A DNA stretch of 64,000 nucleotides from Lingula anatina. Taxonomy: Eukaryota > Animalia > Brachiopoda. A model generated the notes under the pieces. The model made no database searches, was not told the origin of the DNA, and saw only the letters and a program-made list of their open reading frames with translations. How positions within the stretch are numbered: position 1 is the first letter of the stretch; the number at the start of each line of letters is the position of its first letter. This document shows, piece after piece, positions 42,523 through 45,500 of the stretch. The stretch spans positions 49,020,788 to 49,084,787 of the forward strand of contig CM120640.1 in the NCBI GenBank assembly GCA_051362555.1. Direction: 5' to 3'. The position numbers and the translations under genes were made by a program.

Positions 42523-45500
42523 ATGTCTTCACGATACTCAAGACCTCCAAATACATCCTTATACATTCGCAATGTTCCAGATGGTCTCAGGTAAGACATT
42601 TCGAGAACTTGTTTTTAAAAATATCCAGAGGTAATGTCATCAGACCTTTCTAATATGAATTTTCTCTGGTTTTCGGATGAAAGCAATACTTCTCATCAAC
42701 TGTTGTAACCGCGTGGTTTGGGTGTTTGGCGTTCGTGTTTCTTGCAGTTAGGTGATTCTCTCCATTACGATAGCTGCGTAAAATGTCTGTTGCTTTCACT
42801 TTGCTTTCAAATGTTTAAGGCAAAAATGTTATATCTCTGTACAGTGTATTTTGAATATCGGAAGCAATCTCTTGTTAAAACTCATCTATGTCTTTAGAAA
42901 CAACAAAAAAAAAAGGATCACGTGCCTTTATCAAGCCCTTTAAAACTCAATAAGCATGGAGAGTGAAGCCATTAATTTTTTTTTAATTTGTTAATGGTTC
43001 AAAGCAGCCTGTTGACAGTAAAATCTGTTTAACTTACTACTTCAATCTGTATCAGTGTGATGTGTGCATGTATATTGGCTGGTGTTCTTTTCTCCAGACC
43101 TGAGGAACTTCGCACCTTGTTTGGTAAATATGGCCCAATAAGTGATGTTTATGTTCCCTTGGATTATTACACTCGGAGACCAAGAGGGTTTGCTTATGTA
43201 CAATATCCTTGTGTTCAGGTAAAATGAATACCACTCTGAGTATATAAGCCACGGAAAGTTCCCTTTGTCAGAGAAACCAGGAAGTTCATCCATTTTGAAA
43301 CTTATAACATTCAGTGGCTTCTCTACTCAAATTGGGAAGTTGTTTTTAAGGCATATAACCCATTGAATTATCGGTTTCTGTTTCTAACTCTTTTTATTGT
43401 TCTTGTTTTTGCATTTAGATATCAAAGACAAGTAGCAAAGATATTCATAACAGTAGGCACAGTCACTTAAACACAAGTCGTGGCAAGAGTAAAAGATATT
43501 ACAAGTCAAGTGCAAGACCAGTAACAAGATAAAGATCACAAGTTTTTGTCTGCGTGGTTTCTGGATCTTTGGGCAAGTTGCCAGGGTGAGGTTCTACTGT
43601 GCAAGAGTTACACAGCAAAGTAGGCTCACGGGAGCAGAAAAGTATATTTGGAAATCAAGATAGCTTCCCATCTTCGGGGCCAGCTCCTATCTCAAGAAAG
43701 AATGAATGAAAGAAACAAGCAAGCAAGAAATTTTCAAATTTGGATCAAGTCAAGGCTGCGGGCGTGGCACCAATTAGCTATTATATCCATGTAATATTAG
43801 TGTTTACTCTTGCCATTTTGGAAAATCAAACAGTCATGATAAGTAGAAATTTTGAAAAAAGTGGCATATTTTGGATATCATTTCCTCTTTCTTTAAGATC
43901 GGAATCAAAATTTTCCCACGAGTTCAGTTTAATGGGGTATTATTTTGACATGTTTAGCTTAGTTGCATAGTTGTTGCACGAGTGAGATTTTCAGCAATTA
44001 AGTCAGATCCCAAAGGATCCTTAACTCCCATGCACATTTGAAGACCCAAGAGATGCAGATGATGCACTGCATTACCTGGACAGATCTAAGTTCTATGGAA
44101 GAGAGTTGGAGATTGAATTTGCACGTGGTGACAGAAGAAGTAAGTTTGTTTTTATATTTATATAGATTATGGCACATTTTTCTATCATTTCTTGAAGTTA
44201 TTTTATTTCCAAAAATCTTAAAGACATAACAATCTAACAAAAAAAGTTGATGTCAATAAATACTTATCCATATTTAAATTACAAATGGTCTCACCCTGGC
44301 TTCAGAAAACAATTGACACTAAAGTAATTGTGTTCTTAGTGTTGTTTATTAGAGGAAACTTGTCTTTCAGCCCCAGGTCAGATGAGAGCTAAGGAGCGTT
44401 CTGCAAGACGACCACCTAGATCCCCACCGTACAGGTCGCGCAGATCACGTAGTTACAGCCCTAGGTAAGTGAATAGTGATGTAGGATTGTGTGTTCATTA
44501 ATCTTTGTTAATTTTCCCCCAGAATTGTTGAGCATTTGATGGAGTATTATCTAAGCAAGATTAATGTGGCTTGTGTCGTTGAAGACCAATTTTCTAATAT
44601 TCATTAGGAGTGGTATACTTTGGCACAGGAGACTTATAATATGATGTTCCTAACTCTTGCTCATGTTACAAAATAACTTTTTTCTTGAATTGTAATCAGT
44701 GCACTTTATTCCTAATACAATATTGTAACAACTGCTTTAATAAGTTATGAAATGTTTGTTTGCAGGCACAGAAGCCCCAGCCCCAGAAGGTGGGTCAGAA
44801 AATTTTAATATCCTGTTTTAGATCTGATAAATATAAATGGAATTTTATTTTGCATGATATTTATTGCTTCAGATTAGAAGAGAATATTTTGTCCTACTGT
44901 TATTTGGCTTCTATTAGTGAAAATATTGATTGATAGACTTCAACTATACTTTTAGAAACCGCTCATTTAGCAGAAGTCCAAGAAGGAGATCAAGAAGTCC
45001 AAAAGAGAGGTAACAATTGCTTATTTTATATAATAACTATTTTATTTATTAAAAATAATTATATTTATTTTTTATTTCAACAGGAGGGCTGGTATCATAG
45101 GTACACAAAAGTTTAAATCAAAAGCAAAATACTTGCTTTTACTATAAACTAAGTAGCTTGGATAAACCCGGTACTTAACCATGGTCCTTTTGTCTAATAC
45201 ATTGGTTTATTTTATTATTGTATATTTTTACAGTAAGAAGAGATCATACAGCAGGTCCCACAGCAGGTCTCCCTCTCCAGGCTACAACAGAAATAGGAGT
45301 CCTCCCAGGAGGTATGTTTAGGATGAGAAAGAAGTTGGTCCAGGTCATTTATATTTTGATTGTCAAGTGGCATGTCTTACAACTAATTGTGCTTTAACCT
45401 GGTTTTGTCCAATGTGTTACATGTTATAACTTGACAAGTAAGTAAATTAGTATATATTTTTAGAACAAAATTAGAAAAACAAGCTGAAAGTATATCAGTT

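Follow-up and report, generated by a model that had tools for sequence, protein, structure and literature searches.

The closest described system is mammalian. In mouse Srsf10, as set out in the sections of Meinke et al. 2020 (PMC7244321) drawn on throughout this paper, exon 2 has an upstream minor donor and a downstream major donor, and exon 3 contains a GA-rich SRSF10 enhancer at nucleotides 17-60, a minor donor that is rarely used, and a dominant poly(A) site. Knock-down of RNPC3 leaves less of the Srsf10 coding form, and the short Srsf10 product is barely detectable. It has been proposed that through the mammalian switch the SR proteins as a whole are tuned by the minor spliceosome.

Two other arrangements, both presented in excerpts of PMC8329584, put the two spliceosomes to work in one stretch of RNA. 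In JNK (MAPK8/9, exons 6a/6b) and TMEM87A/B (exons 11/11a), U2 acceptors and U12 donors, two of each, interlock to give mutually exclusive exons, both of which code for protein isoforms. In Drosophila prospero, a U2 intron lies inside an AT-AC intron, and the U2 path suffices by itself for a finished mRNA, which codes for a second protein. Then there is the ancient unproductive splicing of SR genes, of the kind seen in SRSF5 (Lareau and Brenner 2015, PMC4379411, in excerpt), where unproductive exons keep a homologous position in different animals with little long-range similarity.

The portions available of the main text of PMC4379411 mention neither SRSF10 nor U12, and those of the vertebrate twintron survey PMC3564746 mention neither SRSF10 nor FUSIP1. 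As far as the accessible parts of the literature on SRSF10 and U12 introns in invertebrates, on their evolution and on twintrons go (supplements and subscription papers aside), no such switch is described outside vertebrates. The Lingula AT-AC intron itself may well be found in catalogues of minor introns. What is known, then, is the mammalian switch; what is new is its invertebrate form, a route that swaps exons, and its apparent age.

An SRSF10 gene split by a minor intron

The window considered here is a stretch of 64,000 nucleotides from the brachiopod Lingula anatina. A sequence-only reading of it had recognized an SRSF10-like gene of a protostome-like animal, and this proves correct: the gene, on the plus strand, matches Lingula SRSF10/12, its exonic parts following by tblastn a protein named SRSF12 (P0005), with a 100% match at the C-terminus. 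The 80 homologous proteins collected (P0001-P0080) are mostly SRSF10/12 where they are named, and a tree of 69 columns pairs the window gene with Lingula at 98/99.

The coding part of exon 1 (42523-42590) begins with ATG at 42523 and is followed by a U2 donor, GTAAG, at 42591. Exon 2 (43098-43202; 105 nt), which has a U2 acceptor at its start and a U12 donor at its end, codes for the first half of the RRM, and exon 4 (44036-44139) for the second half, as judged by splice joints, tblastn and Pfam; the three exons together translate into the RRM. Joints and tblastn likewise place the exons of the RS domain at 44371-44464, 44766-44789, 44956-45009, 45234-45311 and 45559-45634, the last containing the stop codon. 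The RRM is cut between positions 44 and 46 of Pfam PF00076 (RRM_1) by an AT-AC intron of 833 nt (43203-44035), as had been read from the sequence. It begins with the U12-type donor ATATCCTT at 43203 and has the branch site TCCTTAAC at 44018-44025, ahead of the AC at 44034-44035 as the 10-20 nt spacing of a U12-type AT-AC intron demands, and RNA is spliced at precisely those ends. Its removal by U11, U12 and U6atac would follow from these consensus sequences. The window holds one of the features that characterize the Srsf10 switch, an SRSF10/12 orthologue with a minor intron that splits the RRM. Rfam gives no match in the window.

Three small irregularities of the gene may be recorded. At 45260 all reads of four runs have G where the window has A, an allele or an assembly error. 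A donor 3 nt upstream of the end of exon 4, at 44136, is used in 3 reads of run X2 and 1 read of run X1, and the 24-nt exon at 44766-44789 is skipped in 3 reads of run X4.

Splicing into and out of exon 3

RNA evidence comes from eight of the nine runs listed for the species, belonging to three studies with differing libraries, and 6-30% of each was read; a junction is reported where one run has at least 3 reads of it, and rarer use is possible. Counts are given for runs X1, X4, X7, X2, X5, X6, X8 and X9, in that order. Exon 1 is joined either to exon 2 (42590>43098: 182, 30, 41, 170, 38, 21, 27 and 38 reads, 547 in total) or directly to an acceptor within the minor intron (42590>43419: 4, 25, 13, 0, 8, 23, 21 and 8 reads, 102 in total, seven of the eight runs), a joint that the sequence-only reading had overlooked. 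From exon 2, removal of the AT-AC intron (43202>44036: 251, 21, 35, 229, 19, 8, 21 and 28 reads, 612 in total, all eight runs) leads to the full-length mRNA. The path from exon 1 through exon 2 to exon 4 gives a full RRM.

The internal acceptor (43380-43418), which had been predicted, consists of a branch-like CTAAC at 43384, a pyrimidine tract and AG at 43417-43418, and is used by 102 + 8 reads. The 8 reads, 0, 4, 2 and 2 of them in X5, X6, X8 and X9, join it to a U2 donor at 43219, 16 nt inside the intron, that had also been predicted; in X1, X4, X7 and X2 this joint (43218>43419) stays below 3 reads per run. The donor works but is rare: entry into exon 3 in X5, X6, X8 and X9 is from exon 1 in 60 of 68 reads and from the +16 donor in 8 of 68. 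The unproductive path had been drawn through the extended exon 2; the main route skips exon 2 altogether.

What lies beyond the acceptor is a stop-carrying exon, 43419-43782. Read depth is continuous across it and falls after 43790 in X8 and X9; together with the joints, this sets its length at 364 nt. It is left by a second U12 donor, ATATCCAT at 43783, also overlooked, which is spliced to 44036 (43782>44036: 8, 0, 6, 7, 0, 9, 15 and 12 reads, 57 in total, six of the eight runs). The second AT-AC intron, 43783-44035 (253 nt), shares its branch site and AC acceptor (44018-44035) with the first. Exons 2 and 3 are alternatives, each with a major-class acceptor in front and an AT-AC donor of its own behind. 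The window has the sites of a JNK-type arrangement, a pair of U2 acceptors and a pair of U12 donors, and both combinations are used. U12 donors and U2 acceptors are handled by different spliceosomes and cannot be joined, so exons 2 and 3 should exclude each other unless the GT at +16 is used.

A candidate poison exon had been proposed within the minor intron, and a stop-carrying exon is indeed there, but its end is the U12 donor at 43783, not a U2 donor at 43586. The proposed all-U2 exit does exist in the sequence, as GTGAG at 43586 and AG at 43993-43994, but in the eight runs no joint is listed from 43585 to any acceptor or into 43995, and in X5, X6, X8 and X9 depth does not fall at 43586. 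Of the junctions suggested as a check, 43202-44036 and 43218-43419 are therefore read and 43585-43995 is not listed in the eight runs. With no U2 exit listed, the window intron is not a twintron of the prospero type.

Read from exon 1, exon 3 stops at TAA 43468-43470 after 39 codons; read from the extended exon 2, whose 16 nt (43203-43218) are free of stops, it ends at TAA 43530-43532 after 100 codons, as had been noted. The two stops fall 312 and 250 nt short of the 43782>44036 junction, more than the 50 nt asked of a candidate for AS-NMD. Pfam gives no match for the read-through frame of exon 3. For RNA with the early stop, either the second AT-AC donor serves as the exit or read depth persists over the last 253 nt of the intron. 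The latter is seen in X6, X1 and X2 and suggests retention; in X4 and X5 exon 3 is entered with no exit junction and depth fades after about 43660, where the RNA may end within the exon.

Use of exon 3 varies greatly. Per run it takes 0-52% of the use of the exon 1 donor (2% and 0% in the two deepest runs), and the second U12 donor takes a fraction of 0.00-0.53 of AC use. Reads per million of exon 1 > exon 3 are inversely related to productive reads across the runs (Spearman -0.88, n = 8), the eight points not being independent because the runs come from three studies with differing libraries. In some runs exon 1 > exon 3 RNA makes up about half of the junctions, a level that argues against efficient NMD and suggests that decay of exon 3 RNA is incomplete.

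Runs X7-X9 have many fixed differences from the window and use the same junctions. In the diverged runs, no fixed difference falls within the 138 nt that open exon 3, against 8 substitutions in the preceding 182 nt (p = 0.011, a post hoc contrast; p = 0.13 for the whole exon).

Comparison with the known systems

The sequence-only reading had drawn the parallel with the mammalian Srsf10 switch, and the same parts are indeed present: the same gene and intron, a U12 donor with a U2 donor downstream, an exon 3 with a U2 acceptor, a purine-rich element near its start and a minor donor of its own, and a productive form that depends on the AT-AC intron. The parts are used differently, to judge by the sections of PMC7244321 cited above. 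Mouse passes from an extended exon 2 to exon 3, whereas the main brachiopod route skips exon 2. The mouse stop is in the extension of exon 2, whereas the brachiopod extension is open and the stops are in exon 3. The second minor donor is rare in mouse but claims up to 53% of AC use in the brachiopod. As for polyadenylation, which in mouse lies within exon 3, 43419-44035 in the window contains no AATAAA or ATTAAA, and no clustered read ends or A-tails are listed in the eight runs; the fading depth of X4 and X5 may still mark an end within exon 3. The exon 1 > exon 3 form is absent among the human SRSF10 variants given in section 5 of PMC8522700, the part of that paper drawn on here.

In their interlocked exclusive exons, JNK and TMEM87 (PMC8329584, in excerpt) are like the brachiopod gene, but brachiopod exon 3, 364 nt with a stop at 43468, is non-coding, and the U2 donor at +16 lets through a leak that includes both exons. 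The likeness to prospero (same excerpts) is the U2 intron, 43219-43418, inside an AT-AC intron; unlike that of prospero, the brachiopod U2 path is incomplete until a second U12 intron has been removed, and it leads to an early stop. The homologous position and the little long-range similarity recall unproductive splicing of the SRSF5 type as excerpted from PMC4379411, with the difference that two spliceosomes are involved in the brachiopod gene.

Motif clusters and the same intron in other animals

Exon 3 is rich in CAAG and AAAGA, resembling the SRSF10 binding motif, with 23 copies across about 330 nt in two clusters. In the 64 kb of the window, both strands considered, only two 150-nt stretches have at least 10 such motifs, and both lie over exon 3. 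At nucleotide 6 of the exon (43424) is AAAGACAA, which agrees at 8 of 9 positions with the SRSF10 SELEX motif as quoted in the part of PMC8522700 used here. Since the window has 10 copies of that 8-mer taken by itself, weight is placed on the cluster and not on the single string.

A scan of metagenomes for the end of exon 2 followed by a U12 donor found 91 loci; since the donor is required, the scan is by design blind to losses of the intron. The intron is complete in 54 loci and the window, with 43 distinct introns. Left out were 36 of the 91, either as incomplete or as L031, a chance match, and L059, whose intron limits are not definable. By blastn the window intron has no similarity to the 42 others, and exon 3 can be aligned with no other locus. 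The 69-column tree, which takes in the genes of 23 of the 43 introns and has few columns and a bootstrap not settled, groups L072 with amphibians and L027 with tunicates (98/89), gathers L005, L012, L033, L047, L048 and groups A and B (below) in a lophotrochozoan set (99/91), and joins L007/L021/L040/L058 with Exaiptasia (94/88) and, weakly, L032 with the sponge Dysidea (94/60); L009, L010, L043 and L045 fall outside the bilaterian fork. A protein search with L043 found no named sponge protein.

A CAAG/AAAGA cluster is found on the same strand in 42 of the 43 distinct introns and on the antisense strand in 0 of 43 (100 dinucleotide shuffles, p at most 0.02), while sequence upstream of exon 2, used as a control, has one in 0 of 32. 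The exception is L048. The motif was picked in 27 introns, that of the window and those of groups A and B, which leaves 16 held out; 15 of these have the cluster, four of the 15 being close relatives. In an unbiased ranking over 13 held-out loci, AAAG, CAAG and AAGA take ranks 1-3 of the 256 4-mers. Introns with clusters include vertebrate-, tunicate-, coral- and sponge-like loci. The string AAAGACAA is present in 20 introns sense and 1 antisense, 14 of the 20 belonging to group A and thus not independent. In the four coral-like introns, conservation is 79-81% in the clusters, 36% in the middle and 70% in the upstream intron. In non-bilaterian-like loci the cluster is all that is clear, and the ends of the predicted exon are uncertain. 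In the intron of L009 (+860 to +1260), a second ATATCCTT stands before the cluster, not after it, and the cluster reaches the branch site.

Predictions of anatomy go further for some loci. In L072, L033, L047 and L005, an AG after a pyrimidine tract is followed by the cluster and then by a U12-type donor, giving predicted exons of 362 nt (L072), 369 nt (L033, by eye) and 286 nt (L047), against 364 nt in the window. Over whole introns, internal U12-like donors are not enriched (14 strict matches sense, 9 antisense); enrichment is confined to the place just after the cluster, with 4 of 17, the window among them (p about 2e-4). None of nine non-bilaterian-like introns has its cluster followed immediately by a second U12 donor, and the U12-like donor in coral-like L007 is absent in its three relatives. 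In L033 and L027 only 66-69 nt of intron, with no donor consensus in them, precede the predicted acceptor, so the predicted exon 3 could be reached only from exon 1, which is the route dominant in the window. A donor matrix trained on exon 4 donors was over-fitted and missed obvious sites, and its donor scores were discarded; automated picks of acceptors were wrong for several loci.

The comparison of orthologous introns that the sequence-only reading had recommended upholds the cluster but not the internal U2 donor, which is patchy. A donor at +16/+17 is found in the window, group A and L005, and is absent in group B, L033, L027 and the coral-like loci. With a wider range (+8 to +44, score at least 5), 23 of 60 distinct loci have one against 13% of background windows, which is not claimed to be general because most of these loci are of group A.

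Two variants of the intron ends are seen in the same minor intron, AT-AG in L047 and GT-AG in L032. Among the 80 homologous proteins, 16 read QYP after the RNP1 motif, the mark of gene models that run through the AT donor (named cases: Plakobranchus, Elysia, Capitella, Bulinus, Batillaria, Paralvinella, Aquarana). This is a recurrent annotation error, and serves as indirect evidence that those species share the U12 donor.

Groups A and B

Group A has 15 loci (L001, L002, L004, L008, L014, L016, L018, L019, L028, L036, L050, L062, L065, L073, L080) and group B has 11 (L015, L022-L025, L049, L052, L064, L069, L076, L078). They are likely paralogues, being found in the same assemblies. Group A has a GT donor at +16/+17, as in the window, and a predicted exon of 334-413 nt ending in GGTAAGA; group B is without that donor and has a predicted exon of 225-278 nt ending in GGTAATTAT (10 of 11). 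In both, the acceptor, the motifs and the end of the predicted exon are conserved, the lengths take all residues modulo 3, and the exon therefore appears conserved but not coding.

In both groups, however, the predicted exon ends in a U2 donor. An AG precedes the AC by 4 nt in 13 of 15 introns of group A and by 8 nt in 11 of 11 of group B, and the branch site of group A is decayed (ACTTAAC). An all-U2 nested path may thus exist in these groups, possibly as a stage in the conversion of a minor intron to a major one.

Proposed mechanism

I propose, and think it likely, that the SRSF10 pre-mRNA picks exon 2 or exon 3, and that the choice is a self-limiting off-switch set by the level of SRSF10 and by how active the minor spliceosome is. 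SRSF10 would bind the CAAG/AAAGA repeats of exon 3 and strengthen its acceptor, a negative feedback like that in mouse. Slow recognition of the exon 2 donor by U11/U12 would favour the route into exon 3, and weak minor-spliceosome activity, if the mouse is a guide, would lower the productive form. The products of exon 3, of 39 or 100 codons, would be non-functional and their RNA partly degraded or retained. For Lingula, autoregulation, decay of the products and sensing of the minor spliceosome are suggested by analogy with the mouse. In favour of this model are junctions found in eight runs from three studies, the diverged runs included, the inverse relation of exon 1 > exon 3 to productive reads, the parts shared with mouse, the SELEX-like string and the same-strand clusters, and what groups A and B conserve. 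It fits less easily with the patchiness among orthologues of the +16/+17 donor, central in mouse, with the coral-like clusters being conserved only slightly more than the upstream intron, with the second U12 donor missing after the cluster in all nine non-bilaterian-like introns, and with a window exon 3 that aligns to no other locus, the anatomy of the orthologues being predicted.

The off-switch could be real and conserved and yet be driven by some other binder of purine-rich elements, such as a TRA2-type or another SR protein, or by signals of tissue or temperature. CAAG ranks almost level with AAAG, the SRSF10 motifs cited have a core other than CAAG, exon 3 use differs strongly between runs, and a review, in the part used here, notes other SR proteins acting on the human SRSF10 poison exon. 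I nonetheless consider this unlikely: the sense-strand bias of AAAGACAA speaks for SRSF10, for all its weight of group A, and mouse autoregulation maps to the same place (PMC7244321, sections as above). Considerably less probable is that exon 3 RNA is not mainly waste but a stable RNA that titrates SRSF10 through its many sites, or the template of a short product. The 23 motif copies, the depth over the last piece of the intron, and exon 1 > exon 3 junctions at 44-52% in three runs (two of the libraries being of poly(A)-/oligo-dT type or unspecified) would suit such an RNA, but length and frame of the exon are free in groups A and B, the read-through frame has no Pfam match, and in mouse the short product is barely detectable (PMC7244321, same sections).

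The all-U2 path nested in the U12 intron, 43218>43419 then 43585>43995, has its first half in 8 reads and a good donor at 43586 (matrix score 9.6). Its second half has no joint listed in eight runs, and exon 3 continues to 43782 and exits by AT-AC, so that a prospero-like twintron is very improbable and at this depth largely refuted. It is too much to expect that cryptic noise around a slow minor intron would yield fixed ends, use up to 52%, and acceptors and clusters that orthologues conserve, in an exon whose start is free of fixed differences (p = 0.011, post hoc). Near-zero use in the two deepest runs is what noise would give, but the facts just given refute it, and I attach next to no probability to it.

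Probable age of the switch

A similar hidden element occupies this intron in animals that range from coral-like ones to vertebrates, so the switch known from mammals probably long predates the vertebrates. The sequence-only reading had suggested that it may be ancestral to bilaterians. The vertebrate-like L072 and the lophotrochozoan loci share the predicted acceptor, the cluster, an exon of about 365 nt and the second U12 donor, from which I infer that the element goes back at least to the common bilaterian ancestor; it was probably present in that of cnidarians and bilaterians.

A bolder reading is that the SRSF10 poison exon is pan-animal, predates the split of sponges from bilaterians and began with JNK-like swapping, its enhancer repeats persisting while each lineage rewired the exit as a second U12 donor, a U2 donor or a poly(A) signal. 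I hold this tentatively, with somewhat less than even confidence. If true, it would rank with the oldest cases known in which a regulator of the major spliceosome has its level set by the minor one. The brachiopod has a working copy whose dominant route differs, and far-off animals have elements that match; this gives a rare case of a minor intron seemingly maintained for regulation, and it bears on the argument that minor introns evolve mostly neutrally (PMC10639083, in the part drawn on).

Other features of the window

On the minus strand, 47747-47866 is an open, exon-like frame of 40 codons with no Pfam match, belonging to a neighbouring convergent gene that may resemble DENND10/FAM45A. At 26097-27987, 36323-36774, 54528-56155 and 60811-61248 lie tandem arrays with units of 146, 160 and 161 nt and short purine-rich repeats, the latter in the region 58001-62000, where GC skew is strong.
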